Positions 914-37,817 of a stretch of 64,000 nucleotides of DNA are shown piece by piece. The notes beneath the pieces were generated by a model that ran no database searches, was not told the origin of the DNA, and was given only the letters and a program-made list of their open reading frames with translations. Each line of letters opens with the position of its first letter. Within the stretch, counting starts at the first letter, position 1. A program made the position numbers and the translations under genes. The stretch comes from Eledone cirrhosa (Eukaryota), in NCBI GenBank assembly GCA_964016885.1, contig OZ024744.1, forward strand, positions 103,726,001 through 103,790,000. Direction: 5' to 3'.

Positions 914-3165
914 TGCTACAGATACCTGGGGATAGATGAGAATATATCATATAATGGTATTTGTAATGGTGTTATAATGGTATAATGGTATTTGTAACAC
1001 GTAACCAGGGAATATTTCACCTGATTAATAAAAAATATGATCATCCGAAATCTCTGCGCACAATAAAACAGTGGCTCACAGTGTGATTGCTGTGCCTGTC
1101 CTAACACCAACGTTTGGAATACTCAATTGGATGATAGACGAAATCCGAGCAGTTGATGTTAGGACTCAAAAAAAACAACATCAGAAACTTCCACATCAAC
1201 AGTGACATAGACCGCCTTTACTTGAAACATAAGCAGGGCGACAGAGACCTAACATCAGTCCAGACAGCATTTGAGTGTCGCATCATATCCCTCCGACAAC
1301 ATCTACAAACCTCCAAACATAGGGGCCCATCTATTGAACAAGTCTATCTGCATGAGACAGATAAGATCATGAGAGTTGGGAAGGAAATCCTCGAGAGATA
1401 TTCCTTGTGTGATAATCAAAAACTCACACCCAGAGAAGTTGCTCAGCAGTATCGCAGTGAATCCATGGATGAAAAACTGCATGCTTATCAGCAAAAAATC
1501 ATGCATGGATAAGTTGCCAGGAAGCTTCAGAGTGAGAGTAATATAGATAAGGAAAGTAGTCTATCTTGGACCAACAATCGCTATATTGGCTCCCATTTTG
1601 AAGGATATGCTTTTGCAATCCAAGAACAGGGGATTAACATGAAATACCTGATTCACAAAAGAGATAAGGATGCAGGCAAAACACCTAGATGTGATAACAA
1701 GTGCAGACTCTGCAGAACTAACATCGAGGATATCACCCATGTCATCAGCAGCTGTCCAAAGATGTCATCGTGGTACTATCTACTATGAGGCATGATGTAG
1801 CGGCCAAAACACTGTACAATGCAATATGTAGAAAAGATAACCCATACAATAAACATATTTTAAAAGCTATAGCAATGTGGAAGACATACATATACATAAT
1901 ATGAAAAAGTACTGGTGGAATGTTCCAGTCAAAACCCCAATAAAATGCAGCCATAATGATATGGGACAGGGAAAAGAAGGCATGCATGTGTAACGGAATA
2001 CTATGTGTGGTTGTAACGATAAGTGGATGGATGGATGTAACTGTTGGTATGGTGGTTTCGATGTAAAGAAAAATACCAGGATTGTGTTGTTACAAAGTTT
2101 ATTTTATTACAACAATATTCAATTTGAATATTGAATGATAAAATAATTGACACAAAATATTCATACAATAATTTGGTGGATCTTCGAGCCACGTAAATTC
2201 AAGTATCACAGAATACGATTATAATATGTGTAAACAGAAATGAATGGTGCGTGTACAAATGCTGGACTCACTATGAATGCGTGTGTGCGGCGTATCAGTA
2301 TATTTACTTATTTGTATTGCAGGAGTCAGCGATCAGCCAGGAAGGTGAGAATAAGTGGCAGACTGGTTTTTCGTGACGAGAGCTTGTAAAAACGTCTTGT
2401 CTTGTCTGTATCTCACTTCTTTTCTACTCGAGGCGTAAACAATCCCTGTATTTATAAGAGTTGAAGTTAGAAGGATAGATATATCCTCTGAACTTTGGTT
2501 AGTCTCCCAAGGGATTAGTTTGCCAAGCGTAAACAAGTCAGAAAGATGGATATATCCTCTGACCTATTTTCTGTCAGGCGTAAACACCTCTGACCTGTGT
2601 TTAGCCTCTCCCAAGGGGTTAGTCTCTTGAGCGTAAACAAGTTACCACGGCTTGTCCCAGAGGCGGGAAAGCTCAGATTCGGTTTTGAATCTTCGCCGCC
2701 GTTATACATGCACAGTAGTGGAAGTTAGCTGCCCAGCAGATGCCAATATAATATCAAAGATTAGCGATAAGGAGAATATTTATGCAGAACTAATGAGAAA
2801 TCTGCAGATACTCCACCCTGAATATACCTTCAGATTTATACCTGTGATTATTGGAGCACTTGGGAATGTTAATAACTGCCTCAATACAAATCTTAAGAAG
2901 CTAGGCTTCACAGGAACAGAAAGAACACAACTAGTTAGGAAATTACAGGTACAATCCATTAATGAAACAGTAAAAATATGTAAAACATTCCAAATATTCT
3001 GCATCTAACAACTGCTTATACACTTGTACAGAAAAAAAGCATATGCACATGCACATATACAATAACATCCATACCTGCACATGCATGCATGCAGACATGC
3101 ATACCTAGTTGATGTGTAAATTCCAATTGGTAAAAATTCATAAAATTATAAAATCAGAAGAACAT
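914..3165 (+). mobile_element. 5'-truncated, decayed R4/Dong-like (RLE) non-LTR retrotransposon interrupted by a solo LTR
   Basis: Contains YRYLG (end of RT), DIDRLYLKHKQG, the CCHC knuckle CRLC..HVISSC, RHD and the VEVSCP..KENIY restriction-like endonuclease motifs. Begins and ends in (CATA)n. Confidence 0.85.
1987..2708. mobile_element. Solo LTR (TG...CA) with 4-bp TSD TGCA
   Basis: Termini tgtgtaacgg / ccgttataca form an imperfect inverted repeat. TGCA is duplicated at 1983-1986 and 2709-2712. Removing the insert restores aaggcatgcacagtag as seen at about 45424. Confidence 0.8.
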
Positions 3166-3227: not shown

Positions 3228-3278
3228 TCTCGTTCCAATATCCCTTGGAAATAACAGATCAGTTAGCCCTGACAGAGG
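3228..3278 (+). CDS. Candidate 51-nt phase-1/phase-1 exon, copy A (SFQYPLEITDQLALTE)
   Basis: Pyrimidine tract plus atttAG acceptor and G|GTAAGT donor. The frame is open and shared with the paralogs at 12783 and 19689. Confidence 0.5.
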
Positions 3279-3376
3279 GTAAGTTATGATTAAAACATAC
3301 TTTGAAATTCTGTTTTGTGTGTAAACATGTATTTTCTGTTGGAAGTGTTTGTATGTATAGATGTAACATGTATATA

Positions 3377-4757
3377 TCTATACTATAAAGCTGACGGCCG
3401 TATGTAGGTAACAAACCTTCTGCCAGATGGCTGGACCAAACACCACCAAATTTGCACCATAGATATAACTTTTTCCAAGTAAAAAAGTGAGGGTATTTTT
3501 GTCTACTGAATTTTGTTAAAAGATTAAAGACATTATTTAACTATTCACTTCTTTAAAATTTCAAATGTCAACACTTCCGGTTATACGTCATTCCTCACTT
3601 TTTCTTATGACGTCGCACAACATTCCCCTCTTTTTCTTAGTTTGTCTTTTTAGATAGATACATCGCTATAACGTAGCGCCCTTATAATATGTCTCTGTAT
3701 GTCTGGCTGTCTGCATTAGATAACGTTTTTCGAAATATTTACTTCTGCGTTCACAAACGGATTTTTTTACTTAAACTTTAATGTTATTTTAATATATATA
3801 TTCGTGTACAGATATTTTTGCATACACAAAAACAAAAACCTATTTATTTCACAAAACCCCAGACGGCTTATTGTCATTGTTACTGTTCGAGGTTAGAGGA
3901 CCACAGTCTTTCCAAGATCTGAGAACTATCAATGGCCATCAATGTTCCACTTACCATTTGGCTTGCCAGATGCGTGGTATGTTACACAATGACAGCCATT
4001 GGCACCTCACCCTGCAAGAAGCAGCAACTGCTAAAATCCCTTCTCAGCTGCGAAAACTTTTTGCTATTATGCTGCACAACTGCGATTTCGCCGACCCTCT
4101 CGCACTGTGAAACAACCACCGTGAAAGTCTAGCTGAGGACATCCTCCATCGCACACGGAGACACAATCCAAACGTAAGATACGATGTCGTTTTCAATGAG
4201 GCGCTCATTTGTCTTGAAAACAGTGTCCTGTAGATTGGTGGTAGGCCTCTAAGTCACTGCAGCTTACTTGCTCCTGACAGGAGTGTCCAGAGGTCAACAA
4301 CTACAGATCTTCTCTGCGAGACAAGCTACCAAATCAGTGATTCTCCTATGGTCAATTGTATGTAGGATGTTCTAGGGTGAGCTCGCGAAACAATCTCTTC
4401 ATCTTTGCTCCGGAGGACCGAACAAAAAATATTGTATACTCTGAGGTTCTAACAATGTAATTTAAATATTTTCTTTCACTTGGAATTTCCATTATGGTTG
4501 TACAAATTATTGTTTGTTAAAAAATTTGTTCTCTGTTCAGCCTTTATTGTTGTAACTATCAATTTTCTTTAACGTACTGGCTGCTGAACTGGGGAATCCT
4601 AAAAACTATTCAAACCCAACATCAGAACACGTTAACCCCTTCCCTCTCACTGACTTGAGAGGGCGTGCGGTATCTTTGCATTGGAGTGTAGGGGGGATTC
4701 CTGAAAAGATAAAATGCCGGTATACCTAGCCAGGTGCCAGCCGGACGGGCCAGCTAG
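3377..4757 (+). mobile_element. Internally deleted Helitron
   Basis: A|TC 5' end and CTAG|T 3' end after a GC-rich subterminal stretch. Rep-Hel remnant LLLFEVRGPQSFQDLRTING..QLRKLF (3871-4110) and helicase C-terminus LYVGCSRV..TKNIVYSEVL (about 4357-4460). An empty-site paralog lies at about 12940-12990. Confidence 0.85.
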
Positions 4758-5149
4758 TACTTATATGTGTGTGTATTTCCGCTTTTAAAATAGGTACACC
4801 AAATGTTGTAAGAGGTAACTAAAAGGTTTTGTGTCAGGAAGGACATCTTCCAGTAAAACCTTGTCTCAAAATATCCTGTCCACCCCATTTCTGCTTGGAA
4901 AGGTTTGTGTAAAAGATCATGATGATGATGGTATATAGATATATATATCATCAGCATTGTTAACATCTGCTTTCCTTGCTAACAAGAGTTGGACTGTTCA
5001 TATAGACCTTTGTAGTGGGGGTAGTCACTAAGATGAGGGTCTGGAGGGGGCATGGGTGAAGGGTACAGTAACGGTGAGGATAACTGATGGGTGTGCTAGT
5101 AGAAAGGAGAGTATTTCACATAGTTGAGTCAGGTCATATTGTATGTTTG

Positions 5150-6515
5150 TGGCTGGGACTTCATCATTACGGCATAGCACGAGCCCCTCACAATCCAGTT
5201 TTGAGGCTTAGCTTCTTAAGGTCACTCTTCACTACCCCTTCCTAAGTTTTCCTGGGTCTACCTCTTCCATGGGTTGTAGCTACTGGGATTGCTCTGCATT
5301 TCTTTATGCAGTGGTTATCCTCTATACATATCACATTACATCCAATTCTCTTATGTTGAGTTTTTCTCTCAGTTCACTTATACTACATCGTTCATACATA
5401 TTAACATTACATATCCATTGGAGCTTACTGGATTCATTTCTCTCCAGCCTGTTCTGATCCTGGCTATCACACATTTAATGTATCCTCCCCCACTGCTAAT
5501 TGAATCTCCTAGGTAATAAAATCTGTCGTCAACTTCTAAGTAGCCTCCTTGTTAACTGAAAGAATCTACTTCACATGTTTTTTAGTGCTTACTTCTCCTA
5601 TGTATATGCCACATACAAAGTCTATCTTTTCCGTTAATCTGTCTGCAATCCCATTACATCACTTGTGTGTCCTTAAATTACATCATGTGCACCTTATAGA
5701 CTTTCTACCCAACCCTTTCTGACATATCAAACAATGATGGTGTCACCCTCTTCTCCTCTTTCCTACTTATTAACACTTTTGTCTTTGCTAAGTTTACTTG
5801 TAGGCCTTTCCTTCCAACTACTTTTAGTATCTCAGCAACTATACCAGATGGTCCAGTTGTCTTCCCTATCTTCATGTCTTTAATTGATTTATCTACCATA
5901 GTGTTGTCAACTTTTATAGCTGGTTCCTCAGTAGGGTCTACATGGGGTAGGGCTTTGCTGTCCCACTTATTCTCTACATTCAGCAATCTCTCACAGTAAG
6001 TCTTCCATACCTTCTTTATTTTCAGCATGAGACAGGGCAAGTGCTCCACTATCATTGTGAACATACTTTTCCTCAACCACATCACAATAGTCTCTAGTGA
6101 AGTGCCTCACAATCAGAAACACATCACGCCTCTGATCTTAAAGATGCAGAACATTTACAAACTTCTACTTTTCTGCATCTGCTAAGTACATCTGGTGCTT
6201 GTCCTCTCTTCTAGCTATTTGGTATTGCTCCCTGTCTCTCTGTTTTTATTGCTCTACCTTATCATTCCACGACTATGTCACCCTCCATCTTGCTGGGACC
6301 TTGTTCCAGCTGCAAACCTGGTTTGTTGTTTCTAGCAGGATGTCCTGTAAGAAACCCCTGTTTTCCTCTATGTTATATGTCTCCATCTCTTCCTTACTGT
6401 CAAATATGTCAAGTAAGGTTTCTCTGAATATGTTACCTGCCACAGGTTCTCTTAGTTTCTAGGTCTTATTCTAAGGTCACTCTAGCCCTTATTCTAAGGT
6501 CACTGATAACTAGTC
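5150..6515 (-). mobile_element. Decayed RTE-clade LINE fragment
   Basis: ERLLNVENKWD..MKIGKTTGPSGIVAEILK and LQVNLAKTKVL. Homologous to the plus-strand copies at 25-27 kb and 30-32 kb. Confidence 0.75.
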
Positions 6516-6756
6516 TACAAGTGGGAACACCTAGAAATCTTCATATATTATGCATGAATCATAAAACGAAGAATTTGGTGTATCTGGAAGATGTTTTACT
6601 GGTTTTCTTTTTTTGTCTCAGAAACACACAACAATCTCAACCAGACAAACATCCAATACAGTCATTTTCTTTTCTCCCTGTCTTCCCGAGTGATGCTGGG
6701 TAGATCAGCTAATACTATATATTTTCAACAGTTCAAACGAGTAGCAGATAAGTACA

Positions 6757-6797
6757 CAGTCCTGATGAAGGGCAATAACCCAGAAACATGTTGACTG
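6757..6797 (+). ncRNA. Minimal type-I hammerhead ribozyme motif (Penelope pLTR type)
   Basis: cagtc-CTGATGA-a-ggg(caataa)ccc-a-GAAA-catg-tt-gactg: stem I, conserved core, stem II and a palindromic short stem III. Confidence 0.7.
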
Positions 6798-7004
6798 TTC
6801 TTCAATGATACTGTTTACCAAAAGGATGACAATGATCATCAAAAACAAAATATAGCATAATGAGGCTGTTTGCTTGCAAGCGAATCGAATATCATTATTA
6901 TTATTATTCAATATAAAACCCATAAATATATTTATGTAATCTGCCATGTTAGAGCAAAAAATCAAATTCTTATATATATATATACCCAACGGACTTCCCC
7001 AGTT

Positions 7005-8410
7005 TCTTCTTCTTCTTCTTCGCCCACTTATTCCTGAGAGGGTCGTAGGAGCAGAGTCTTCAAACACACCTTCCAGCGAGTCCTGTCAGAAGCAACTGTC
7101 TCCAGCTGATCCGGTTGGATCCATAAGCGTGACCAGCAAAGTTCATGGATGTTAAGCAACCATCTTGTTCAGGGTTTGACACTGGGTCTCTTGTGAGTTG
7201 GTTTTGCTCGTAAAATCTGTCCAGCGATTCTTTCCTGAGACATTCTCACTACATGCTCATAGTATCGCTGTGATCTCTCAATTCGAAGAAGTAGCAGCTC
7301 TACCTGGAGTGACTCTCTGATCTCCAAGCTATGCACTCTATCGAGAAATGTTACTCCAGAGACCCTTCAGAAGAACCCCAATTTGGCCGCTTGTATTTGC
7401 AATCGTATTCTTTCAGTCATTACCCAAGATTCATGGCCATAGGTGTGGGTTGGCACAAATACTGAATTGAAGATAGTGACTTTAGCTTTTACACCTACCT
7501 CCATTCTTCTGATAACTGATTACTGAAGCTGATGCATTACTGCACCAGCTCCTGCAATTCTTGTACTTATTTCAGCCTCTTGCCTTCCATTACTCATGAA
7601 CATGGCCCAGAGATATTTGAAGTTCTCCACCTGCTTCAGTGGAACTCCATTTACATGTAGTGTGCGCACTACGCAGGCTTCCTTGAGAGGACGACTGTCT
7701 CAGTTTTCACAGCACTCAGCATAAAACCTATCAAGTGCAAGGCAGAGATCACCTATCAAGAAGCACCATGTTGTCTGCAAATTCCAACCAATTGATTTTA
7801 CACCTGCCAGTCATGATACCACTCCCATCCTGGCTGTGCATGTCAATCCTGTTCATGTAAATAATGAACAGGAGAAGTGACAGTACACACCCTTGCTAGA
7901 GTCCTACTCCTACTTTAAATGGTTTCTATTTATCTGAACAGAAATAATCAGGCATTTTGTATAGGGACATCAGGGAAGCAAGAAGCTGACCATCGATCCC
8001 ATACTCCTGTAGAACATTGCACAGCAGATCCTGAAGAAAGCAGGTATATGCCTTTATGAGGTCTACAAAACAAGAATAAACCTCTTGGCAATACTTCCAC
8101 AATTTCTCAAAGACCTGCCACAGTGTGAATATTTGGTTGGCTGTGATGTGTCTGGGGTGAAAACTACAATGTTCATCAGCTAGCCTGGGCTCGACAATCT
8201 CCCTGCATCTCTTTGCCAAGCACTTAGCATAGACTTTAGTGGAGATGCTTAACAAGGAGATCCCTCTGTAAAATGGGACAATCTCTCTTGTCACCCTTTT
8301 TGATTACTATTGCTTAGGTGCCTTTCCAGAGATCCAGGCCACTTGGCACACACAACTCAGCCAGAGAATAATTTCTCTAATTATGGTTTTTAACATTTCA
8401 GGTCAGATTT
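7005..8410 (-). mobile_element. Decayed 3' portion of an RTE-like LINE (second family) with short (GAA)n tail
   Basis: YRGISLLSISTKVYAK..CFVDLIKAY RT motifs in ORF 7926-8294; (ttc)n at about 7005-7021. Confidence 0.75.
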
Positions 8411-8769
8411 CATCTTCCCCAATGATAATGGTCATATTTACATATACATTTATATATGTATATGCCTGGCAGGTTTTCTACTGCTGGATGCCCTCCTATC
8501 ATCAATCACTTTACAGCATATACTGGGTACATTTATCATGTAAATCACCAACAATAGGGACATTGTCACATCCTTAACACAGATGTAGGGTCTTCTCAAC
8601 CTTTGTCTGGCAAGCTTTCTATGACTGCATGCCCTTCCTATTGTTAACCTCTTTACAGTATCTACTGGGTGGGTGCATTTATTATGTAGATCACTGACAC
8701 TAAGGAAGTTGCCAATCCTTGACACAGATGAAGAGTTCTCCCAACCCTTTTTTTCTATATATACATAGG

Positions 8770-9890
8770 AAACAGTTCAGCTTTAATCAGTTGTATAGTA
8801 GTCAAACCGTTATAGATTGGTTTAAAGTCCTCAAATACACTAAGAAAGCTTGGTTTACATAATTTGGAATTATTGACTTTTACCCCTCGATATCCAGGAC
8901 CTTACTTGATAAGGCCCTTGATTTTGCTACTAAATTTACTAACATGGATGGTTTGGACCGATTAGTCATATCCAACTGCAGGGAAACCCTCCTCTTTAGC
9001 AATGGCGACCCATGGACAGAAAAATGCACTACCAATGAGCTATTCAATGTACCAATGGGATCATTTGATAGCACCAATATATGTGATCTGGTGGGCCTGT
9101 TTATTCTAGACACTATACAAAATAAATTCCCTGATTTCCATACGGGCCTATATCGAGATGATGGTCTGGCATTATCCAGCCATAAAAGTGGCCATGACCT
9201 GGACACCTTTAGGAAAAACTTAATTGCTAGCATCAACAGCCTTGGTTTAAAAATTACGATAGCAACCAACCTCACTAATGTTAACTTCCTAGATGTTAAC
9301 TTAGACGTACAGACACACTCATACAGACCATTCCACAAACCCAGAGAAAAACTCTGGTACATCCATAAGGACTCTAGCCACCCCCCTATAGTTTTTAAAA
9401 ACCTCATTAACATTAGTAAGAAGGTTTCAACCTCTTCTCCAGCAAAGCTACCTTTGATAGGGCACACGCTACTATAATTCAGCACTAAATAGCAGCAGCT
9501 TCTCTGAAAAAACCACATACTATCCAGATCACTGCCCTACATCTAGTAAGAAAAAACCTAGACATAAAGATGTCATATGGTTCATGCCACCTTTTTCACT
9601 GAATCTGAAAACTAATGTAACTAAAAAATTCCTAACCCTAATAGATCTCCATTTCCCTGTTGTCTATAAATACTGAAAGATATTTAATCACCATACATTA
9701 AAAATAGGATGCTCTTACACTAACAATGTTAAATCCTACATCACCAGCAAACACAAAAGCCCTCCACTGTACAGATGCTCATGTAGAAGACCAGAAACAT
9801 GCCCACTAGACCAACAGTGCAACACTCCAGTGGTGATATACCAAACAGTGATTTTTATTGAATATTGATTTGGTTTGTGTTGACTAATAC
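8770..9890 (+). mobile_element. Penelope-like element fragment (RT and Cys linker before GIY-YIG)
   Basis: PMGSFDSTNICDLVG, GLYRDDGL, VNFLDVNL and YIHKDSSHPP motifs; CSCRRPETCPL..C..VIYQ at about 9775-9845. Confidence 0.8.
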
Positions 9891-9975
9891 ATACCTTGCT
9901 AGCAAGGAAAAACAGACTTTAAATGATGGTGATGTTAATGATACATACATACTTACATATATATCTACATACATA

Positions 9976-12725
9976 TGTAGTGACCCCTAGCAGTGAAATC
10001 CAGAACTCAAGAGAGTTACGTCCCTTGGGGACTGTAGTGACCCCTAGTGTCAACAACAGAAGTAAATGGAGTTACGTCCCCATTGAGACAGCGAGAGCAC
10101 TCCACCTCTTTTTACTCGCAGCAGCCCTGGAGAACGGAGGCGCCTTCGCCTCCTTCACTTCAGCCTTCACCCACCACACGTGGAGTGCAAATACCATCCT
10201 ACTCCAGTGAACATGTTAAGAGCAACTCTTTTTACTACCAACAGCCTCATGAACCAACCACACCATTCCATCGTCAACCTTCACAAGTAGTGGTAATATG
10301 TTTATTGTCCTTTCTTTCACTTCAATGAAGTAAACCTTTGTGTATAAACCAAAAAGCCATTCTTGTTATTTCAACAACTATTATCTGTACTAATACCATT
10401 CTTCTAAAGTGGTGACCCCGACGTGATGGACTAATTGTTCTTTTTAAAAAAAAAAATGGAAAAAGAATACAAAGTGGTATTATAAAAAAAAAAAAAAAAA
10501 TTCATAGAAAACAACACGCTTTTTGCATCTGATATGGCTTCATTTACCGATCACATAAGGAAGAGAGAACTGAACTTTTTGTTAAGAACAATTATGTAAA
10601 TATTTTTCTTTCCTTCTTTTCCCTGCTAAAATTTTTGAATATATCAAGATGGCGGCTTTCTTCTCCATCAGTTTTTTTTGCGCGAAACTGTGCGCCATGC
10701 TGGTTTTTGTTTTAGGTTCTCTGTAAATGTATTGTTAATGCCATTGCTTGATTAGTCGCTCCCCTACACATTATTTCAGATGCATTTATTTTCCTGTCCG
10801 GTTGTTTGACAGAAAAAATTGTGGATTTATTTCCTTTTTCCTCGTGTTCAAGGTATTTGTTTTTACAGAGACGCATTTTGGCCGCTTACTGCACCAATGG
10901 CATCTCATTCTATTCTCCCTACTTACACGGGCGACGTTCACTCAAATGGAAGCATTTTTCGAGGCTAACAACATCGCCGAGGCACAGCAACATCCCCTCA
11001 GCCTTAGCGCATTTCCTCCGGCACTTCTCCCAATTATTAAGGATTTCGTATTGGAGATACCGACTGACGCTACTTACAAGTCGTTAAAGGCTGAAATACT
11101 CAGCCGGACTGCACAGTCCGCCGAGAAACACTTTAGAGCTCTGGTCCATTTGGAGCATATCGAGGATGGCACTCCATCGAACCTCTTACGTTAAATGAAA
11201 GACCTAACAGAGGTGTCGGCAGCGGAAACTGCATTGTTGAAGCAGTTGTTTTTCTCACGGCTACCGACCAACATTCGAGCAATTTTGGCCCCCATTAGGG
11301 ATACAAGTTCTGTGGACCAACTGGCCACCTCTGTGGACATAGTTTTTGAGGTCACGGGTGCTGGAGGCAGCGAGGCCCTTGCCGCTCTTTCTCACCCAGC
11401 TCAGGCCACACCTGGCCATGCCACTTGTGCGGCAACTCATGCAGACAGCGCAGCTATAATGGCTATGCAGAAAGCCATTCTGGAACTCACCCTGGAGCTA
11501 CAGAAGCTGAAAGCCTCTAGTGGTTTTCGTTCATGCTCACACAGCCGTGGTAGATCTTACTCTTTCAGACACGCCCCAGGTCACCAGCTTCATCTTTATG
11601 CTGGTACCACAAGCGTTTTGCTGAGAACGCAAACCACTGTGCAACCGTGTTCGTTTGTGAAGTCGGGAAACGCCAGAGAGGTTCCCTGAGAGCGGCAGTC
11701 GACCTCAGCATAAAGCTCCTAAACCGCCACTTCATCATCAAGAACCTTATGTCTGGAAGACGCTTCCTCATGGATACAGGAACCTGCTATAGTATTTGGC
11801 CGGTCCATTGCCTAAAGGATACCCCTGTGGAGTCATCCGTTACTCTGCAGGCCGTTAACCACTCACCTATAAAGATGTACGGTCAAATCTCGCTTCCCCT
11901 AAAATTCCAAAATCTTCATAGGGATTTTAAATGGATTTTTACGGTCGCTGACTTGCCTTACCCAATCTTAGGAGCGGATTTCCTCCACAATTTCTCCTTG
12001 ACTGTGGACGTCCGTGGCCAACGCCTGTTGGATGACATCACCGGATTCTCAATTCACTCCGACCGAACATTTTATTTCCACAACTGGTACTCCAGTGTTT
12101 TCACGTCCATGTCGTTTGCCGGCAGACAAGTTAAAGGCAGCACGGTCCGAGTTCAACCATATGCTGCAGCTGGGCATTATTCGCCCATCTACGAGTTCTT
12201 GGGCTTCACCATTACACATGGTGCCCAAGACTTCTGGTAACTGGAGACCCACTTGGGATTATAGAAGGTTAAACACGATGACCGTCCCGGATAGATATCC
12301 AATTCCCCATCTCCAGCGGTGAAATCCAGAACTCAAGAGAGTTACATCTCTTGGGGACTGTAGTGACCCCTAGTGTCAACAGAAGTAAGTGGAGTTACGT
12401 CCCCATTGAGACAGCGAGAGCACTCCACCTCTTTTTACTCGCAGCAGCCCTGGAGAACGGAGGCGCCTTCGCCTCCTCCACTTCAGCCTTCACCCACCAC
12501 ACGTGGAGTGCAAATACCCACCTACTCCAGTGAACATGTTAAGAGCAACTCTTTTTACTACCAACAGCCTCATGAACCAACCACACCACTCCATCGTTCA
12601 ACCTTCACAAGTAGTGGTAATATGTCCTTTCTTTGACTTCAATGAAGTAAACCTTTGTATATAAACCAAAAAGCCATTCTTGTTATTTCAACAACTATTA
12701 TCTGTTATAATACCATTCTTCTAAA
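9976..12725 (+). mobile_element. CsRn1/Kabuki-like Ty3/Gypsy LTR retrotransposon, internally deleted
   Basis: LTRs at 9976-10408 and about 12314-12725 (second one clipped at its 5' end); TSD CATA. Gag carries a CWYH..C..PC (CHCC) motif, protease FLMDTG, RT start [22 protein letters not shown]. The rest of pol is missing. Confidence 0.85.
10410..10427 (+). promoter_or_regulatory. Primer binding site complementary to the tRNA-Trp 3' end
   Basis: TGGTGACCCCGACGTGAT immediately after the 5' LTR; it is the complement of the conserved eukaryotic tRNA-Trp end ATCACGTCGGGGTCACCA. Confidence 0.85.
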
Positions 12726-12782
12726 CATACTACCTCACACCGATATCTATGTAAGATTGCTTCTATTTTCTTTATGATTTTT

Positions 12783-12851
12783 TCTCATTTCATTATCCCT
12801 TGGAAATACCAGAATTATTTTCTCAGAAAGCTAGACAGCAATCTATAGTGG
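12783..12851 (+). CDS. Candidate 69-nt exon, copy B (SFHYPLEIPELFSQKARQQSIV); homologous acceptor AG changed to TT
   Basis: G|GTAAGT donor and the same open frame as copies A and C. An alternative in-phase cAG at 12810-12812 would give a 39-nt exon. Confidence 0.4.
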
Positions 12852-13134
12852 GTAAGTTATAATTAAAACAAATTTTGAAATTCTGTTTTGTGTGTAAACA
12901 TGTATTTTCTGTTGGATTTGTTTGTTTGTATGTATAGATGTAACATGTATATATATGTGTGTATTTCAGCTTTTAAAATAGGTACACCAAATGTTGTAAG
13001 AGGTAACTAAAAGGTTTCATGTCAGGAAGAACATCTGCCAGTAAAACCTTGTCTCAAAATATCCTGTCCACCCCATTCCTGCTTGGAAAGGTTGATGTAA
13101 AAGATGATGATGATGATGACGGTATATAGATATA

Positions 13135-14000
13135 CAGGGTGCGGATGATATTTGTTCGCAAGATTACTGTCTAGGAAAAAATAACACAGTAGTTTTATTT
13201 TTTAAGATATATTTATCAAACTTGGGTCAGTTTGTCTTCATGACTTGTTCTTTCGATCTCACTCGATAAACCCACCATTGGCTTTGATGACGGCCTCGGA
13301 ACCGGCTACAGGCCTTCGTCACTGTCCCCCGACTTAGGTCCCTAAAGGCACTTGTGATCCTGGCCTTCAGATCGTCTTTTGTATTGCAGCTAGATCTGTT
13401 GGTGTCCCGTTCCACTGCGCCCCACACAAAGAAGTCGAGGGGGTTGCAGTCAGGCGAGCTGGGAGGCCAGATGTCAGGTGAAATGTGGTCGACAAAGTTC
13501 TCTGACAGCCAGGCTTGGGTTTTTTGGCTGGTATGGTAGGGCGCTGAGTCTTGCTGCCACACGTACGGCCTATCTGCAGCTAGCTGGTTGACCCAGGGCT
13601 TTACTACCTCGCTCAGAACGCAGATGTAGCCATCGGTGTTCAGCTTGAGGCCCTCAGGGAAAAAGTGAGGTGACATGACGTCACCATGACTGCTGACGAC
13701 ACCTAAGACCAATGTTGTCGCTGGAAACTTTGTCTGCATGACTCTGGGCACGTCTGACCTTTTCCACCATTCTCCTGCTGATGCTGAGGAAGTCTGAAAT
13801 TTCCTTATTTGTCCTCCCGGCTCAGATTCCAAGAAGAACTCTGTGTCTCTTCCACAAATTTGGAGGTTCAAAATTATTCATAATCAATTATTCTGAAAAT
13901 AAATAATGGAAATATAGTCACTGTTTTTATGAAGACAAGAGTGACAACGGAAGTAAAAGAAATTTGTGTAAATTAGCAGTTGAAAATTGTGAACACCCTG
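13135..14000 (-). mobile_element. Tc1/mariner superfamily DD37D (maT-type) transposon, internally deleted
   Basis: CAGGGTG termini and TA duplication. QQDSAP..WPPSSPDCNPLD has 37 residues between the last two catalytic aspartates. Empty sites exist at about 4940 and about 23935. Confidence 0.9.
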
Positions 14001-14150
14001 TATATATCATCAGCATTGTTGTTTAACGTCCGCTTTCCCTGCTAACAAGGGTTGGAGGGGTTCATATAGACCTTTGTTTGGCAAGCTCTCTATGGCCAGT
14101 TGCCATTCCTGATATGAGCCACTTTACACCATGTACTGAGTGCTTTTATC

Positions 14151-14452
14151 ATCTAGATCACCATCACTAGGGAGGTTGCCACGTCCTTCATACAACTGAA
14201 GGGCCCTCCCACCCTTTGTTTAGCAAGATTTCTACAGGTTCGTACCCTTCCTATCACCCACTATTTAACAATGTGTAGTGGGTACATTTCTCATGTAGAT
14301 CACAACACTAGAGAGGTTGTTGTGTCATTGATACAACTGAAGGGTCCTACCAACCCTTTTAGGTATAGTTTCTACAGCAGGGTGCTATTCATGTCGACAA
14401 CCAACATTACAGAGTGTACTGGGTGCATTTACTTGGCAGTGTCACTCGAGAA
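14151..14452 (+). repeat. Near-identical duplicate of 1-301 (part of a larger duplicated unit)
   Basis: Both start atctagatcaccatcactag, and the ORF track gives nearly the same spurious peptide at 122 and 14271. Confidence 0.9.
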
Positions 14453-14667
14453 GTTTTAAGTCATAGGCCCATATGATTTGATGGTCATGTTGGTAGTTGA
14501 TTGTGTTGTTGTGTTGCTTCATTTGTAGGGTGTGTGCTCACTTGTAGCTTACTATGTCATGAGGTCACTGTTGTGTGACACAGTGTGACCAGAGATTGCA
14601 TGTGTGCAGTAAGTGTTCAATAAGATGATGATATGATAGTTCCTTGATCACGCAGAAAATGAATATA

Positions 14668-15085
14668 TATATAAATAAACCACGATAATACAAAACCGCT
14701 ATATTATTAATTTATTGGAAATAACTTATGCCGAAGTGTATACACAGGAATTATGGATATTATTTGTTTGAAAAGTAGAGTTAAAGTTGTATTTACTAAG
14801 AAAACTGCATGAACTTTACTGGCTGGGTTGAGAGAGAGGGAGACAAAGAGATAGAGTAAGAGAAGGTAAGAGTCTGTAAGACCCCAATGTTTACTTTATC
14901 AAGAACTGCTCTGAACTTGCTGGCCTGATCTAAGGCAGGCTATTTATCTATGTTGCTTCCTCTGTCTCCAAGACTTGAGAACAAAGGACTGACTTTTCAA
15001 GGTCGTCCAATCTCGAAAGGAGATAACCCAGAAAATGACCATTAAATGTCAACCAAGGGTCAAAGTGTGGACAGATTTCACTACA
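14668..15085 (-). mobile_element. Probable solo LTR
   Basis: The minus strand starts TGTAGTGAAATC, like the LTR at 9976. Contains TATA-like and AATAAA signals and is flanked by TATA. The left boundary is ambiguous within (TA)n. Confidence 0.5.
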
Positions 15086-15539
15086 TATATAGATATATAG
15101 AATTAAGATGTTTGCTCCAACATAACTGTATACATATAAGTATGTGAATTTCATATAACTAATGATATATGGTATGTTTATGAATATATCTTGGAAAGAG
15201 GAAAGAAAGTTGGACGTGTCAGGCTTAAGCCCTTCTTCAGGAGTACAAATAGAGACAGGATGACAATGAAGAAAGAGAAAAAAGGTCCAGTAAAGACAAA
15301 AAAAATCAAAAATTAAGTTTGAAAACAAGACAACTGTTAGGTAGTCTTGGTAATGAGTTGGAACACAAAGTGGAGTGTGTGTGTGTATTAGTGTCGTTAT
15401 ATGTGTGAGTATGTGTATAAACGTGTGATTTTTAAAGTTATAATGTGTAAAGTATCAAAGATAGTGTGTGTATGTGTATATCCATGTGTTACTGGCAGTG
15501 GACATGTATGTGTGAGTGAATGTAAGTTTGAATGTCTGT

Positions 15540-16715
15540 CGGGTCTACTGGGGTAGTTTCTCTCTCTCCCATTCGTTCTCAACATTCATCAGTCTCTCAT
15601 AATGACATTTCCAGGGCTCCTTTTTCTGAGTATCAGTGACACTAAGTGCACCAGCATCATTTCAGACACACTTATCTCCAACAACATCCTGACTTACACA
15701 GACACACCGCCTTGCAATGCGGAACACTGCATGTCTCTGATCTTTTCATCACAGAACATTGACAAACTTCCTACTCTCAGCTTCCCTACATGCTAAGTAC
15801 ACCTGGCATCTAGCGTCTCTTTTAGCAGCTGTGTATCGGTCTCTACTCCCACCATTTTTCCAAGTCTTCCATGCTTTATATATATATATATATAATCATC
15901 ATCACTGTTTTACGTCCATTCTTCCACACTAGCATGGGTTAGACAGGTTGTCCTGTTGTGGGCAATTCCAGGTCAGGTGACCATGCCTTGCTCAAACAGA
16001 ACTGATTTTGACTAGATTTCTGAAGCTGGATGGCAGTACTCATTTACAGTGAGTACTGGCTGTTTTTTGCCATGGCACCTATACAACCGCTTTACAGAGT
16101 GGACTGGGTGCTTCTTTGTCATGACACCTCCATGACCATTTTACAGTGGGAGGTAGGTGAGAGCATACTATCTACATGCTTTAGTTTTGGCTTATACTTG
16201 TGGTAAGTTGGGTCTTCTGTATTACTGCATAACGCCTGAGGTCCCGGTCATGTGTCATCGCCTTTGAGAGGTGCAATTGGGCAAGGTCAGCTTTTATCAT
16301 CTCGTCCCAGGTCTTCTTGGGTTTCCAAACTCCAAGGCTTCCATCGACTTTTAGTGCTCTGCACCTTTTTATGCAGCTGTCATCCTTCATATGTATCGCA
16401 TGTCCATACCAACGCAACCTCCTCTCCTGCACACAGCATTTGATTCCTCTTATGCTCAGTCTCTCTCTCTCAATTTGTTTATGCTTTGCCATTCATGTAT
16501 ATTACTATTACACATCCATCGGAGCATGCAAGCTTTGTTTCTTTCTAATCTACGCAAGTCTTCTGCACACAGTGCCCAGATCTCACTACCATGTAACATT
16601 GCTGTTCGTATGCACGCATCATACAGTCTGCCTTTCATTTTGAGGGAAAAGCCTTTTGCAGCTAGCAGTGGTAGTAGCTCCCTGAACCTCTACCATCCCG
16701 TTCTTACCCTGGTTA
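15540..16715 (-). mobile_element. Decayed RTE LINE fragments and 3' UTR
   Basis: KGRLYDACIRTAMLHGSEIW and ERRLRWYGH..KPKKTW C-terminal motifs. Confidence 0.8.
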
Positions 16716-17074
16716 TATATATATGGGGATGGCGATGGCGACGTTTTCTTCATTGGCCACATGGGCTAACATGAAGAAAAAACATTACAGACGGTACAGG
16801 ACAATACAAAGTGGGTTTTGGCCGTGTAAAAAGGTTATTACAAGAAGATAGAAATGTGTAAAAACAAATCAAAAATATTCAAACAACAAAAATTCTCAAA
16901 AAAGGGGGAAACCTCTTAGGGTCACCCGTGGTGAAAACCACACAAAAGACCACAGCCACCCTGACCACGTAAAACTCCTCTGGTTTCAATCGTTTATGAC
17001 ACGTTTTACAACTGTCGTAAAACTCTTTTAGATTATCTCCCTTTCCCTTCTCTCTCTCACTTCCGGTTGCTCCA

Positions 17075-17115
<41 letters not shown>

Positions 17116-17552
17116 CTCTACCTTCACTTCGATTGAGATGGCACGGTATGACTGGCCTCCTGTTATCGCACCCCCAGACTTAAGTCTAATCGGTACGCTA
17201 TAACTTATTCTATTCTATTTTTCCCCTTTTTTCTTCTTCTTTTTTCTTTTCTTTCCCTCCTGGCTTTTTGATCGATAAAAGGCCTTGGGTGCGCCGCTGA
17301 TCGTTTTAGATGTCCTGTATTAAGCGCCGAAACCTCTTGATCTCAGTTTTACAGCGGATGAAGGATTTCTTTCCTTCTCTTGTTTCATCCATACTACCAT
17401 CTTAAACTATATATATCTGTTGGACACGCAGTGACTAACAACAGAATGTTTTAAGTCTGCGTGTCTGACATACATGCATAGCTTGTGAATAAAAAATTCA
17501 AGGGGTATCGCTGGACGTGGTAATCCCTCCCAAACATCTTTTGTAACATCTT

Positions 17553-17715
17553 ATTGGCTAATTTCATTGTCTTATTGGCTAATCAACCAATGAGAGTAAT
17601 TGTTGCTCAAAAACATCCGCCACTTTGTTTGCACGTTTATTTATTGTTTTGCTTTCGAATCTTCCTCCAGTATTTCGTCGTTTATCATCAAAATATTTTT
17701 CTTGTTTTGGTAAGT
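17553..17715 (+). promoter_or_regulatory. Possible CCAAT-box promoter followed by a short first exon ending at a GTAAGT donor
   Basis: ATTGG, ATTGG and CCAAT within 40 bp (17553-17591); TTG|GTAAGT at about 17710; not repeated elsewhere in the window. Confidence 0.3.
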
Positions 17716-18121
17716 TATATTGTTAATTTATATATGATTTTTAAAATTTATATTAACTATTAAAAGTCTGAAAATATTTTTATACATCTTACAATAATAT
17801 TTATAAGATCATTTATAAAATAACAATTATATAATCTAATTACATTACAACGATAATTTATTATTAATATATATCATGTTTAACTAGAGTCATTATAAGC
17901 ATTGCCTTAAAAAAATATTAAACTAGACCTGAAAAATGTGCAAGTTCAAAAGAGCCACAGAATGTTATAATAAACCTTCAAAAGTGTGGGACTAGAGTTG
18001 TTGCTAGCAAGGAAAAAACAAACTTTAAAGATGGTGATGTTAATGATACATACATACATACATATCTACATGCATGCATGTATACAAACATACATACATA
18101 TCTACATACATACATGCATGC

Positions 18122-18733
18122 ATGGTGGCTGCCAACTCGTTTTCGAGTACGGCCATTACTTTATATCCATGTAGGAGAACCCCTATCGATGCGCTGAACG
18201 AGTGTGACTTTTTAGTCCAGCCAGCAACTTGAAAACTCTGGTACAAACACTACACTTGTGACAATTATTGACACATAGTGCTGGGCCCATGGTACCATGT
18301 GATGACAAGGGCAGAGAGATCTCCAGATATAAAGCAATGCCTGTGCCGTGAAGCTTTTATAGTGAGGAAAAGGCACTGCACAAAGCCAGTCCCACTCTCT
18401 TAACCAAGATGATATTTACCAAAAAGAAGAACAAGTCAACATCATTGGATACCATCAGGGTTGCAGGTGTTATATCAGAGTTTTCCTTCTCCTAGAATTC
18501 TGCCTTGACAAAAGCTAAGGGGTCATCTCTCCCGGTGATTTTGGATGGCCATTGACTCTTAAGAGGTCCTTTGCCCTTTGACAGGTTTTGTTTTTAGTCC
18601 TGCAGGATGTCCAAAGTCACCCACCTCACCAAGAAACCTTGGTGGGGTTGCCAGTTTAGTCGCCAACGACCCGACCATGAGACAGGTTGTACTGGGATAC
18701 ATGTTACCAGTAGCACCAACTGGTGACCTGACA
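18122..18733 (-). mobile_element. Bipartite non-autonomous RTE derivative (5' UTR fused to 3' end)
   Basis: Its 5' end matches the start of the RTE at 19857 and it contains ctaggagaaggaaaactctga. Its 3' end resembles the RTE tail at 45993-46034. Flanked by (TATG)n. Confidence 0.7.
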
Positions 18734-18776
18734 TGCATACATACATACATATCTACATACATACATACATGCATGC

Positions 18777-19588
18777 AAAGTAGTCTATCTTGGACCAGTA
18801 ACCACTATATTGGCTCCCACTTTGAAGGATATGCTTTTGCAATCCAAGAACAGGAAATCAACACAAAATACCTGATTCACAAAAGAGATAGAGATGCAGG
18901 CGAAACACCTGGTTATGACAACTCTGCAGAATTAACATCGAAGATGTCACGCATGTCATAAGCAGCTGTCCAAAGATGTCATCGCAGTACTATCTACCTC
19001 AGCTGGATATGATCTTAGACCGTAGAAAGATGAGACAAATACCACAAAGGATGCACAGTAGTGGAAGTTAGCTGCCCAGCAGATGCCAATATAATATCAA
19101 AGATTAGCGAAAAGGAGAATATTTATGCAGAACTAATGAGAAATCTTCAGATACTCCACCCTGACTATACCTTCAGATTTATACCTGTAATTATTGGGGC
19201 ACTGGGATATGTTAGTAACTGCCTCAATACAAATCTTGAGAAGCTAGACTTCACAGAAACAGATATAACACAACTAGTTAGGAAATTACAAGTACAATCC
19301 ATTAATGGAACAGTAAAAATATGTAAAATATTCCAGAAATTCTGCAACTAATAACAGCATATACACATGTACAGATACAAAGCATATGCACATGCACATA
19401 TATAACTCAAAACATTCACATCCACACATACCATAACACCCATGCCTGCACACACCCAAGCCTACAGACATGCATACATATCTACCTAGTTGATGTCTAA
19501 ATTCCAATGAAAGAGTCTTGTGTCTATGTTAGATACTGACTCTCTCTCTATTGGTAAACATTTATAAAATCATAAAACCAGAAGAACA
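18777..19588 (+). mobile_element. 5'-truncated R4/Dong-like element with internal deletion
   Basis: SHFEGYAFAIQEQEI and EVSCPADANI..KENIY motifs plus the shared 3' UTR; (CATA)n on both sides. Confidence 0.85.
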
Positions 19589-19688
19589 TACATACATACA
19601 TTCACACACACTCAGATATATATATGTATATACTATCTCACACTGATATCTATGTAAGATTGCTTCTATTTTCTTTGATTTGATTTAG

Positions 19689-19757
19689 TCGCACTCCGTT
19701 ATCCCTTGGGAATGTCAGAAAAGTTACCCAAGAAATCTAGACGGAATACTTTACTGG
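19689..19757 (+). CDS. Candidate 69-nt phase-1/phase-1 exon, copy C (ALRYPLGMSEKLPKKSRRNTLL)
   Basis: Pyrimidine tract plus atttAG acceptor, G|GTAAGT donor and an open frame. The other two frames contain or align with stops in the paralogs. Confidence 0.5.
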
Positions 19758-19856
19758 GTAAGTTATAATTAAAACATACTTTGAAATTCTGTTTTGTGTG
19801 TAAACATCTATTTTCTGTTGGATTTGTTTGTATGTATGTATAGATATAGCATATTA

Positions 19857-34129: not shown

Positions 34130-35175
34130 AACCTTTGGGCATAAAGAAAAATAATTTTCTACATTTAACAAATGTTATTTAATCTTCTTCAAAATACTCC
34201 CCTTGGGAGTACACACACTTCGCCTAGCATTCTGCCACTGCTGGTAACACTTCAGGAACACCTCTGGAGTGCTATGGAGCTCTGTCCTCTCTTTTCTCAT
34301 AATTTTCTCCTGTGACACAGTTTGTTTCCCTTTCAGCATAGTTTTCTGATTGGGGAAGAGCCAGAAGTCACATGGTGCCATATCAGTAGAATAGAGAGCT
34401 TGTCAAACAAGTAGTGTGTTGATCTTGACCAGAAAATTTGGATTATGTAGGTGGAGTGAGTGGGTACATGGTTGTGGTGAAGTTGCCAATTCTTCGCCAT
34501 CCACATGTTCAGCCACTTTCAACACACAGCATCCTGAAGGCAACATATAACCTCCAGTTAGTATTCCTTATTGATTGTTTGGCCTTGTAGTATATATTCA
34601 TGATGCACTATACAATAGGAGTCAAAGGAACAGGTCAACATTACCTTCATATTGCTGCGAACCTGTCATGCTTTTTGCGGCCTTGGTCAAGACAGATGCT
34701 TCCATTGGGAGGACTGGAACTTGTTTTCTGAGTCATAACTATAAACCATGTCTCATCACCCTTGGTGATGGTCTTAATAAAGTATGGGTCCTCGTTTGCA
34801 CAGTACAGCATGTCCCAAGCAATTTCAAAGCAGAGTTGCTTCTGCTGCTTCACCAGCACATTGGGGATGAATTTCACTGACATTTAGCATGCAAAAATCC
34901 TCTGTCAAAATGGAATTCACTGATCCTGTGCTTATTCCCACTTCTTGAACAATTTTCTGGATTGTTACTCAATGGTCTTCCATGACTATTGCTGAACTTT
35001 CTCAATCAGCTCTGCATTTTTTGAGTTTGTGGGTAACCTGCCTGAGTGTGCCTGTTCTCCACTGAGGTGTGGCCATGTTTGAAGTGGTTATACCACTCCT
35101 TAATCTGAATTTTTCCCATGGCAATATCACCAAAGGCCTACTGAATCTTCTGGATGGTTGGAGTTTGAGTATCAC
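34130..35175 (-). mobile_element. Decayed mariner transposon
   Basis: ITKGDETW and MAPCDFWLFP..KTMLKG motifs; boundaries approximate. Confidence 0.75.
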
Positions 35176-35199
35176 TATTTGTGATACTGAGTCCTGCAG

Positions 35200-35405
35200 T
35201 GGCTTTTAAAGCCTGCTAGAGACTTGCATGTTTTCCAACATTCAGCTCTTCAATACATCTACAAAGAGTAAGTTATAATTTTAAAACGTTTTGTAATTTT
35301 TATTGAACATATTAATGTGTATGTTTATATGTTATACATATCAATTTATTTTAGATAAGACTTCATAGAATAATTTGGTCTTGTTTGATACCATATCTCT
35401 ACAGG
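35200..35405 (+). pseudogene. Two possible degenerate small exons (35200-35267 and 35355-35405)
   Basis: cAG..GTAAGT (68 nt) and ttttAG..G|GTAAGT (51 nt). The first donor context resembles that of exon copies A-C. Both have stops in the phase-1 frame. Confidence 0.3.
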
Positions 35406-36119
35406 GTAAGTCATTATTTAATCACCCTTTCTAATTTTTAACCGTCTGTTACATATACATGTGTATTTGTTAGCATTCTATGTTGTGTTCAGATATGTCA
35501 AACAATTTTAATGATAAATATGTCTGCCATACTGGATAACAACATAGCTTCAATGTCTTGTGAAATTTATAATCTGAAGATGTTAAAATATCATATAGTA
35601 ACACAACTATGGAGACTGCAGAAGGTTGCCAACAGTATTTTGTAATATTATACCAATGTTTAAAGCTTGTGACCAAACATGGTAGATATATTCATTACTT
35701 AATGTTATAAACTTTTATTCATATTTCCTATTTTACAAAAAGTTGTCCATGTCTTTTGTGTTTGTCAAACTATATAGTTTATTATATTTTGATCACATTT
35801 TAGGTGACTGTTATTCAACTGAAAGTGTTGATAATATTGAAGAGATTTCATGTGCTCTGAAGTTTATTTTGAGAAGAAGAAACAATTGAAAATGAAAAAA
35901 ATAATATCAATTCTTCATATGTGTATATATATATATACACTGCTATCTGTTAAGGCCAATAACATTGTTAGAACTCCATGCAATCTTGAAGAGATAATTC
36001 CAATGAGATCATACAGTGAGAGCTATTGTTTTTGAAGTCGCTCACATCACATAAGATTCCATTGTAGATTCTTAGCAAGTGACAGAGTCATATATATGTG
36101 GGTGTCTTATATATATTAA

Positions 36120-36228
36120 TTTATCAATATATCGATATATCGATTTATCATGATCAATCAACAGTCTGAAATGATCATAAAACAATAAACTAATTAACAA
36201 CCTATATTCGCTTTTTGTTTTATTTTCA
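36120..36228 (+). repeat. About 105-bp AT-rich segment repeated at 39061-39160
   Basis: atcgatttatcatgatcaatcaacagtctgaaatgatc..ttattttca is present twice. Confidence 0.85.
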
Positions 36229-37150: not shown

Positions 37151-37640
37151 GGTCTAGCAATGACATCATCATATAGATGTTTGAAGCTCATAAGGGAGAT
37201 CTTTGTGTTGTATTAGAAATAGTAAACAAATCTCCCTCAAATCACCTACAATCTTCTTTGCTATATATTTATGTATGTAGGCCATCATTATTATCCTCAT
37301 TTAACATCCATTTTAATTGCTATCAACAGTTGGACAGGTCATGTTGAACCAAGACAATACTCAAGCCAAGCTAATAATCTCTGAGATGGACCAATTGCTT
37401 ACATACATTGCTATGATCTATTGCATGCCTTTTATCATGGTATCAACATTAGGGATAGTGTCATGTATTTCACACAAATGATGAATTCTGACAACTTTTC
37501 TATAGTTGCATACCTTTCCTACCATTAACCACATTACAGAGAATCTTGGCACCAACACAGGAGGTTGTCATTCCATTGACACCACTGACTAGATCTCCTG
37601 GCCTTTGTTTTATAATCTTTCCATGGCTAGATGTTTTACC

Positions 37641-37817
37641 TTGGCAGTATCGGTAGAGGGTCGGACGCCATGCTTTCCAGCATAGTTACTTCCCTTTACG
37701 ATCTGAGTTCAAATCCCGCCGAGGTTGACTTTGCCTTTCATCCTTACGGGGTCGATAAAATAAAGTACCAGTAATGCACTGGGTAATTTCTGGCCTTGTG
37801 TCTAAAGTAGAAACAAT
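37641..37817 (+). mobile_element. tRNA-derived SINE
   Basis: B-box gagttcaaatccc, conserved body gcctttcatccttacggggtcgataaaat; inverted copy at 49866-50050 and partial copy at about 50660-50780. Confidence 0.75.

Follow-up and report, generated by a model that had tools for sequence, protein, structure and literature searches.

What is encoded by three short, closely related segments of octopus DNA that differ from one another more than the introns around them do? The question is raised by a 64,000-nucleotide stretch of the Eledone cirrhosa genome (assembly GCA_964016885.1, contig OZ024744.1, positions 103,726,001 to 103,790,000, called the window below), in which the original prediction had picked out segments A, B and C as a duplicated small exon. 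We conclude that A, B and C are probably cassette exons of an orphan octopod gene, placed towards its 3' end. The predicted product of this gene would be a soluble and probably disordered protein of at most about 290 residues, with conserved ends and with short internal modules that are likely diversifying under positive selection.

Window coordinates are contig positions minus 103,726,000, with negative values upstream of the window. The stretch analyzed around the window measures 1.464 Mb, within a 3.0-Gb assembly, and all gene models and exon borders were predicted from DNA only. Two read runs, X1 and X2, come from one sample, possibly the source of the assembly itself, and behave as genomic DNA: their contigs continue through intron and exon alike, and none of the 15 joints listed for them (there were 819 further ones) lies at an exon border. 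They have no bearing on expression.

Segments A, B and C

The predicted coordinates of the three segments and their lengths of 51, 69 and 69 nucleotides (nt) are exact. One frame, entered and left in phase 1 (phase 1-1), is open in all three and gives the peptides originally listed. Our recount of B against C agreed with the earlier figures: the two differ at 21 of 69 exon bases, at 16 of 22 codons, in each of which the amino acid changes, and at 4 of 85 bases of the adjoining intron. The contrast between exon and intron is significant by Fisher test (21/69 versus 4/75, p = 1e-4). The 16 nonsynonymous codons are weaker evidence than they appear, with several changes in each of four codons. Pathway counting gives 2.7 synonymous changes among the 21, versus about 5 expected, and the 12 codons with a single change, all nonsynonymous, give p about 0.04.

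An assembly artefact is an unlikely source of these copies and of the differences between their exons, since contigs from X1 and X2 cover exon C at single depth (5 and 8), whereas the downstream intron common to the copies stacks up to 43 and 32.

A family of mini-exons at one locus

Three copies had been described; these are real, but the set is larger. A DNA search of the genome found six near copies, all within 34 kb, with D, E and F lying just upstream of the window. Collecting copies by way of the flanking intron, as had been proposed, placed these six within a family of 57 related internal mini-exons of 15-69 nt that share intron flanks, all in the 1.46 Mb around the window; distant members were found with profiles of the intron flanks. 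From 70 collected donor sites we removed two first exons, three homologs of a stop-carrying exon and eight low-scoring rows without family flanks, and six members below the score cut-off were admitted on flank similarity.

In a frame-blind test, the acceptor was chosen regardless of frame, and an exon passed if its length was a multiple of three and its phase 1-1 frame was open. With a training set partly chosen after open frames had been seen, 51 of the 57 members passed, as did 35 of the 40 outside a 17-copy tandem block, compared with 54 of 438 non-family GTAAGT sites; the further copies thus do not carry random frameshifts. All 35 exons with a length divisible by three were open in the common frame, and 14 and 4 in the other two frames. 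A minus-strand array first came to light through a donor profile built from plus-strand exons alone, and of its 20 internal exons outside the tandem block 18 pass the test. The median acceptor score is 5.7 in the family versus -0.7 in the background, and a splice-site scan of low-repeat DNA (464 kb), blind to the family, returned nine candidates, six of which are family exons. We consider splicing at the family sites likely. The unit was copied in tandem together with its intron flanks, and the copies were afterwards spaced out by transposons.

A dispersed transposon or other repeat with a variable middle could mimic such an exon, and the setting invites this reading: repeats make up 64-70% of the region (of 464 kb, 64% matches a second place in it), and a repeat fragment accompanies the unit. 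However, six copies lie within 34 kb, strand follows the gene models, the frame is conserved, and three flank patterns searched against all 3.0 Gb point to a single locus. The first had seven matches, all at this locus, with none on the other strand and none for the control; all 21 matches of the second and six of the seven matches of the third were here as well, the third also giving one control match. Within the reach of these searches the single-locus distribution refutes a transposon, which we regard as scarcely credible. The family is confined to one locus.

Acceptor sites of the six recent copies

Copies A-F are all open in one frame, and their lengths of 15-69 nt change in steps of three. 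The AG upstream of the longest form is present in A and C only. Its absence from B had been noted before; B, D, E and F are all without it, each through a different change. A CAG exactly 30 nt downstream, in frame, is kept in all six copies, and the donor is likewise invariant. We infer loss rather than gain of the upstream AG because older family exons have an AG at that distance. Phylogeny does not settle the matter, since the intron tree of the six copies is poorly supported (nearly star-shaped, support 40-85). The same 30-nt acceptor shift occurs in one older exon pair (57 versus 27 nt).

Chosen without regard to frame, the best acceptor is the upstream AG in A and C and the CAG in D, E and F. 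In B it is a third AG, which would give a frame-shifting 25-nt form from 12827 (score 3.2), and the in-frame 39-nt form ranks second (0.5). The long and short forms of A score 3.0 and -0.7. The six young copies, whose acceptors are weak, are probably included in only part of the transcripts.

An "invariant YPL core" had been attributed to these exons. This does not hold, because YPL is found in four of the six recent copies only (SPL and SFL in the other two; older exons are without it) and because the 30-nt stretch that holds it would be intron in the four copies that use the CAG, where it lies upstream of the only in-frame acceptor. The original prediction also left a choice between cassette exons and paralogous genes. 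Duplicated, frame-preserving cassettes of one gene agree with our data, but separate genes are unlikely, since the shortest unit, D-E, measures 2.4 kb and our scans found no second exon within it.

Divergence of exons and introns

We computed 20 paralog pairs, ten of which share no member; two pairs from the tandem block stand outside the ten. Over the ten independent pairs, 139 of 442 exon positions differ versus 119 of 958 flank positions (0.31 versus 0.12, p = 2e-16), and the exon is the more divergent in all ten. Exon lengths change in steps of three, and the exons outrun their flanks.

Among A-F, taking all 15 pairs, the upstream intron differs at 43/416 sites, the 30-nt stretch that holds YPL at 98/450, the first 75 intron bases at 67/1125 (6%) and a second shared intron block at 202/2105 (9.6%). 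The last is met at 4782, 12970 and 23796; insertions, of about 1.4 kb in A and 3.9 kb in C, have displaced it in these two copies. Beyond the internal CAG the count is 56/138, from only four equal-length pairs, of which A-D is possibly misaligned.

A repeat fragment that was duplicated along with the unit serves as a neutral yardstick; its identity as a long interspersed nuclear element (LINE) was deduced from its other copies in the window, and it had no Pfam match. In 300 sites compared among A, C and F it shows 20 (A versus C), 25 and 26 differences; the introns differ by 6-10%. The fragment of D is 18-21% divergent and may be a separate insertion, and E and B gave no fragment of their own. 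Because the co-duplicated repeat differs about as much as the introns do, the introns appear to evolve near the neutral rate, and the exons are the outliers.

This yardstick bears on the possibility that, next to genuine older exons, the six young copies are for the most part dead or seldom used, their exon decaying while the flanks are kept alike by gene conversion or splicing signals. Loss of the upstream AG in four of six copies by four different lesions, together with weak acceptors, would fit such decay, and so would the star-like intron tree and the slightly greater likeness of the first 75 intron bases than of the second block. Yet all six copies remain open in one frame with lengths in steps of three, the CAG and the donor are invariant, and a divergence of only 7-9% in the co-duplicated repeat among A, C and F indicates that the flanks are not unusually conserved. 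Nor is it to be expected that conversion tracts would pass over an exon of 15-69 nt and yet cover the conserved flank on either side of it. We consider wholesale death of the young copies improbable.

In six close pairs of equal length, the proportion of nonsynonymous differences (pN) is 0.25, the proportion of synonymous differences (pS) 0.13 and the intron value 0.12 (22/180); pN exceeds the intron value (p = 0.003), and the differences fall 21/18/11 on the three codon positions. The first exon of the plus-strand gene model described below is conserved and has the opposite pattern. In its 3' 21 codons, compared with a diverged copy, the differences fall 5/1/12, with 12 of 18 at third positions, and we counted 9 synonymous differences on 11.7 sites and 9 nonsynonymous differences on 51.3 sites. 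These patterns argue for diversifying selection on the internal modules, which we think likely, rather than for relaxed constraint, but the ratio of nonsynonymous to synonymous divergence (dN/dS) is by itself insufficient as proof.

Local hypermutation of the exons would give a mutational rather than a selective cause. It would accommodate a dN/dS not significantly above 1 and the pooled pS of 0.24 obtained when a saturated pair is included. In the six close pairs, however, synonymous divergence matches that of the intron, transitions and transversions are distributed alike in exon and intron (35/49 versus 27/31, p = 0.61), and the first exon goes the opposite way. Such a cause is very unlikely.

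Predicted gene models

The plus-strand model spans 208 kb and ends inside the window (Table 1). Its candidate first exon has a family-type donor, no good acceptor of its own and a CpG ratio of 0.85. Fifteen internal exons of 15-69 nt are predicted to follow, nine older ones (-125,517 to -23,355) and then D, E, F, A, B and C, with introns of 0.9-47 kb. First, internal and last exons join in phase, making 17 predicted coding exons; with all 15 internal exons in and the stop exon skipped, the running frame is 882 nt long, 660 nt of it in phase 1-1 exons. The stop-carrying exon has a homolog in a minus-strand sister that also has a stop, and possibly provides an alternative protein end. The acceptor side of the remnant exon has been replaced by a decayed element on the minus strand (about 34300-35190), which we take to be mariner-like from motifs in its three-frame translation. 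An open homolog of the last exon ends a short sister gene 1.0 Mb upstream.

Table 1. Positions of the exons and associated elements discussed in the text (window coordinates)
Feature	Position	Strand	Remarks
Candidate first exon, plus-strand model	-172,518 to -172,383 (contig 103,553,482 onward)	+	45 codons, phase 1
Copy D	donor -14138	+	21 nt
Copy E	donor -11717	+	39 nt
Copy F	donor -424	+	15 nt
LINE-like repeat, 3' fragment	2708-3127	+	co-duplicated with unit; also before C at about 19051-19625; neutral yardstick
Mini-exon A	3228-3278	+	51 nt, phase 1-1; second in-frame acceptor CAG would give 21-nt form from 3258
Conserved donor-side intron	3279-3377	+	common to six recent copies; also 12852-12954 and 19758-19852
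Mini-exon B, in-frame form	12813-12851	+	39 nt, CAG acceptor; upstream AG at 12781-12782 lost
Mini-exon C	19689-19757	+	69 nt, phase 1-1; second in-frame acceptor would give 39-nt form from 19719
Remnant family exon	35246-35267	+	family donor at 35268; no good in-frame acceptor
Stop-carrying family exon	35355-35405	+	51 nt, in-frame stop at fourth codon
Candidate last coding exon	35804-35889	+	phase 1, 27 codons, stop; AATAAA at 36184
Inverted family mini-exon	39167-39223	-	57 nt, open phase 1-1; beyond plus-strand gene end

Another candidate for the first exon, at -130 kb, was rejected; it has no fitting donor and sits in a segment found at other places. Between B and C, in unique DNA, a 39-nt segment on the plus strand (17671-17709) has a strong acceptor, a GTAAGT donor and three open frames, with no family flanks. 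It could be an unrelated cassette exon of the same gene.

The minus-strand sister model covers 355 kb. It has a candidate first-exon donor at -233,973 and 37 predicted internal exons reaching to -589 kb, and the DNA upstream of this array yielded no homolog of the plus-strand first exon. The tandem block consists of 17 near-identical 57-nt exons on the minus strand, about 2.5 kb apart (contig 103,168,500-103,216,200, -557 to -510 kb), one of them without an AG. A palindrome resembling a cAMP response element, TGACGTCA, lies at -233705, and the ATG in the candidate first exon of the sister follows 147 bp further on; the palindrome is one of 22 in the 1.46 Mb, was noticed post hoc and was not used.

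The array ends in a stop-carrying exon, and 0.5 kb past it begins a 48-bp satellite of about 330 kb (contig about 102,805,700-103,136,000, -920 to -590 kb; 3,940 exact 13-mer matches), which separates the sister from short copies. Stops recurred and no long open reading frame (ORF) was seen in one stretch of the satellite read by eye. It is possibly centromeric or a source of rearrangement. Beyond the satellite are a short minus-strand model, with a 99% copy of the first exon (-950 kb), one mini-exon and an open last exon (-987 kb), as well as a plus-strand copy that has decayed (-993 to -933 kb).

Predicted protein

The plus-strand first exon encodes an acidic start, an amphipathic stretch (moment 0.54) and then two cysteines; the sister's candidate first exon likewise starts with cysteines. 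Hydropathy in the plus-strand first exon reaches at most 1.9 in a 9-residue window and 1.1 in a 19-residue window, and no signal-peptide-like or transmembrane stretch was detected there by this measure. The internal modules of the plus-strand model are of mixed composition, rich in Ser, Leu, Lys, Glu and Asp, and cysteine makes up 0.6% of 13 plus-strand internal exons. We therefore picture a soluble, largely disordered chain, perhaps held at a membrane through lipid-modified cysteines.

The original prediction had likened these exons to those of toxin, immune and gamete-recognition genes, and a toxin or other secreted product does not sit well with a first exon of this kind. A secreted arms-race protein (of venom gland or mucus, or an immune effector) would resemble the micro-exon genes (MEGs) of schistosomes, with a signal exon that we missed or with modules released as peptides. 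Phase 1-1 cassette exons are typical of extracellular proteins, and some modules hold paired basic residues or several cysteines. Exons outrunning their flanks are the pattern described for conotoxins (PMC10561478), and the mature regions of MEGs are described as attaining dN/dS > 1 (PMC4350168). The first exon, however, is acidic at its start, low in hydropathy and without a good acceptor, and a scan of 240 kb for signal-peptide-like first exons turned up nothing but repeats and ORFs that did not convince. A more hydrophobic peptide would result from another ATG in the first exon, but that reading ends in phase 0, and the codon-position pattern favors the other frame. A secreted product is thus unlikely, and we retain a soluble intracellular chain as the better description.

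Homologs were sought for single exons only, which makes the following negative results weak for a fast-evolving gene. The 45-residue first exon had no match at E 0.001 by phmmer against 1,835,955,588 representative proteins and no usable match in the ESM Atlas, and none of 13 candidates from a word-indexed search of 80-2000-residue proteins held. Five exon peptides (first exon, B, C, sister first exon and last exon) had no match in Pfam. With exon divergence above intron divergence across the family, these results agree with the earlier proposal of a fast-evolving, unannotated protein. Literature listings showed no description of such a cluster in cephalopods, although supplements of genome papers could list the genes as unnamed models.

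Surroundings of the cluster

The long ORFs of the window with a Pfam match are reverse transcriptases, RNase H-like domains or DDE transposases. Among them, minus-strand ORFs resembling a long terminal repeat retrotransposon (51805-55048), with an RNase H-like match, lie between 255-bp direct repeats (at 51255 and 55168, 97.6% identical). A tandem duplication of about 1.9 kb at 59588-63421 (99.6% identity, with internal 96- and 68-bp repeats) is either very recent or an assembly duplication. At about 161-191 kb, short-period tandem repeats contain many similar short ORFs with weak background matches.

Downstream of the inverted exon, 102 bp of intron (39060-39160) are duplicated at 36127-36228, and DNA lying 1.03 Mb upstream matches 37192-37641 at 98.9% identity. 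The duplicated intron and this identity over such a distance are a sign of recent exchange between distant family members.

A Rab1A gene about 200 kb downstream of the window, of which three exon segments were found on the minus strand, is a usable synteny anchor. Its last exon is closest, among named matches, to those of Octopus bimaculoides (92%), O. vulgaris and Argonauta (both 91%), other molluscs reaching at most 84%, which places the animal among the octopods. The top-scoring row, 78% identical, comes from a record flagged as contaminated.

Possible origin and function

Several points weigh against a gene with diversifying cassette exons. The splice borders and junctions are predicted from genomic sequence; the gene ends were chosen in the same way, and between the candidate first exons of the two models there is no alignment. 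Six of the 57 members fail the frame-blind test, for reasons that can be made out in part: two have lost the AG (-589044 and -527559), one is a 46-nt exon, two (-98546 and B) have a better-scoring internal AG, and one, at 35.2 kb, had its acceptor replaced by the mariner-like element. The acceptors of the young copies are weak (-0.2 to 3.3, under the background 95th percentile of 4.0), and, as the best acceptor of B also shifts the frame, some of these copies may be dead. In the 17-copy block the exons are no more divergent than their flanks (0/57 and 2/57 versus 2/100 and 4/100). Of the two comparisons originally proposed, that of exon with intron bore out the prediction, but dN/dS is not significantly above 1, at 2.1 (p = 0.11) in the six close pairs and 1.3 (p = 0.43) with the seventh, saturated pair. 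Finally, our germ-line guess, given below, rests on analogy.

If the predicted exons are used, the cluster may have grown as follows. Unequal crossing-over, aided by shared repeats, would copy an exon with its flanks, and phase 1-1 copies would enter the message harmlessly. Because each module is phase 1-1, the frame would survive its addition, its shortening (through the acceptor 30 nt downstream) or its skipping. Substitutions in the protein, changes of length that keep the frame and shifts of the acceptor would then build up fast, and weakly spliced copies could be skipped. The constant ends would set the location of the protein, with the cysteines of the amphipathic N-terminal stretch open to lipid modification, while the partner met by the variable middle would keep changing.

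Orphan genes that are duplicated and evolve fast often belong to the germ line. On this ground and by analogy with mammalian TSBP1, our tentative guess is a cytoplasmic or membrane-attached protein engaged in an arms race, likeliest in the germ line or sperm, that might work like TSBP1. An immune role is a weaker candidate, some other role stands about level with it, and a role in a secretory gland would be surprising. A still broader picture, which is compatible with the sequence but which we think doubtful, is an octopod cluster making a combinatorial intracellular repertoire. A constant first exon would be joined to changing selections from the dozens of mini-exons under positive selection; the proteins would be as variable as those of MEGs but not secreted, and would serve an arms race of the germ line or of immunity. 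Such a cluster would lie beside, and possibly in conflict with, the 330-kb satellite.

If spliced as predicted, the locus is a megabase gene cluster invisible to homology-based annotation, which would miss it because of its 15-69-nt exons, its 0.9-47-kb introns and a first exon for which 1.84 billion representative proteins gave no homolog. Exon birth and change would here be caught in progress, with six young copies, a homogeneous 17-copy block and older diverged clades side by side. Exons that outrun their introns would mark an arms race, and the tissue of expression would point to an antagonist in octopus reproduction or immunity.

Comparison with known systems

Conotoxin genes share with this cluster a mollusc host and an exon divergence above that of the introns (here 0.31 versus 0.12). 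The coding exons of conotoxins are given as diverging about three times more than the non-coding DNA beside them, in a setting rich in transposons (PMC10561478). A conotoxin gene is built of about three exons, which encode a signal peptide, a propeptide and a cysteine framework, and such genes duplicate as wholes, whereas here exons duplicate inside one gene of 17 predicted exons, with no signal peptide and no fixed cysteine pattern.

TSBP1 is testis-specific. TSBP1/C6orf10 (mouse BC051142) is described as having very many spermatogenic isoforms and a function still unknown (PMC10953240). Unlike TSBP1, the octopod cluster has several sister genes and diverging paralogous exons. No first-exon match to TSBP1 was found by phmmer over all representatives or in Pfam, the internal exons being too short to search.

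Tropoelastin and the casein/SCPP genes are also modular, having grown by duplication of small in-phase exons and having lost exons through splice-site mutation. Their products are secreted and strongly biased in composition, whereas the modules described here are of mixed composition and no signal peptide was seen.

Schistosome MEGs, which vary their proteins by exon skipping, resemble the cluster in layout. In both, most of the coding sequence lies in short symmetric exons (here 660 of 882 nt, in 15 predicted exons) separated by long, transposon-rich introns, duplication is recent and lineage-specific, and the variable part evolves faster than a conserved first exon, as set out for MEGs in PMC4350168. 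MEG exons of 6-36 bp are said to hold about 80% of the coding sequence (PMC5825161), and a wider definition allows 3-81 bp (PMC10526429). Ten of the 51 in-frame exons here are 36 nt or shorter and all are 15-69 nt, which misses the strict range but fits the wide one. MEGs are described in PMC4350168 as restricted to platyhelminths. The octopod genes differ in their mollusc host, their mostly longer exons, their size of 200-350 kb, a first exon for which no sequence homolog was found, and the lack of a signal peptide as judged by hydropathy and the first-exon scan. The cluster is thus MEG-like in layout and evolution but is not a MEG; if our reading of it is true, the strategy of the schistosome MEGs arose independently in cephalopods, apparently in a protein that is not secreted.

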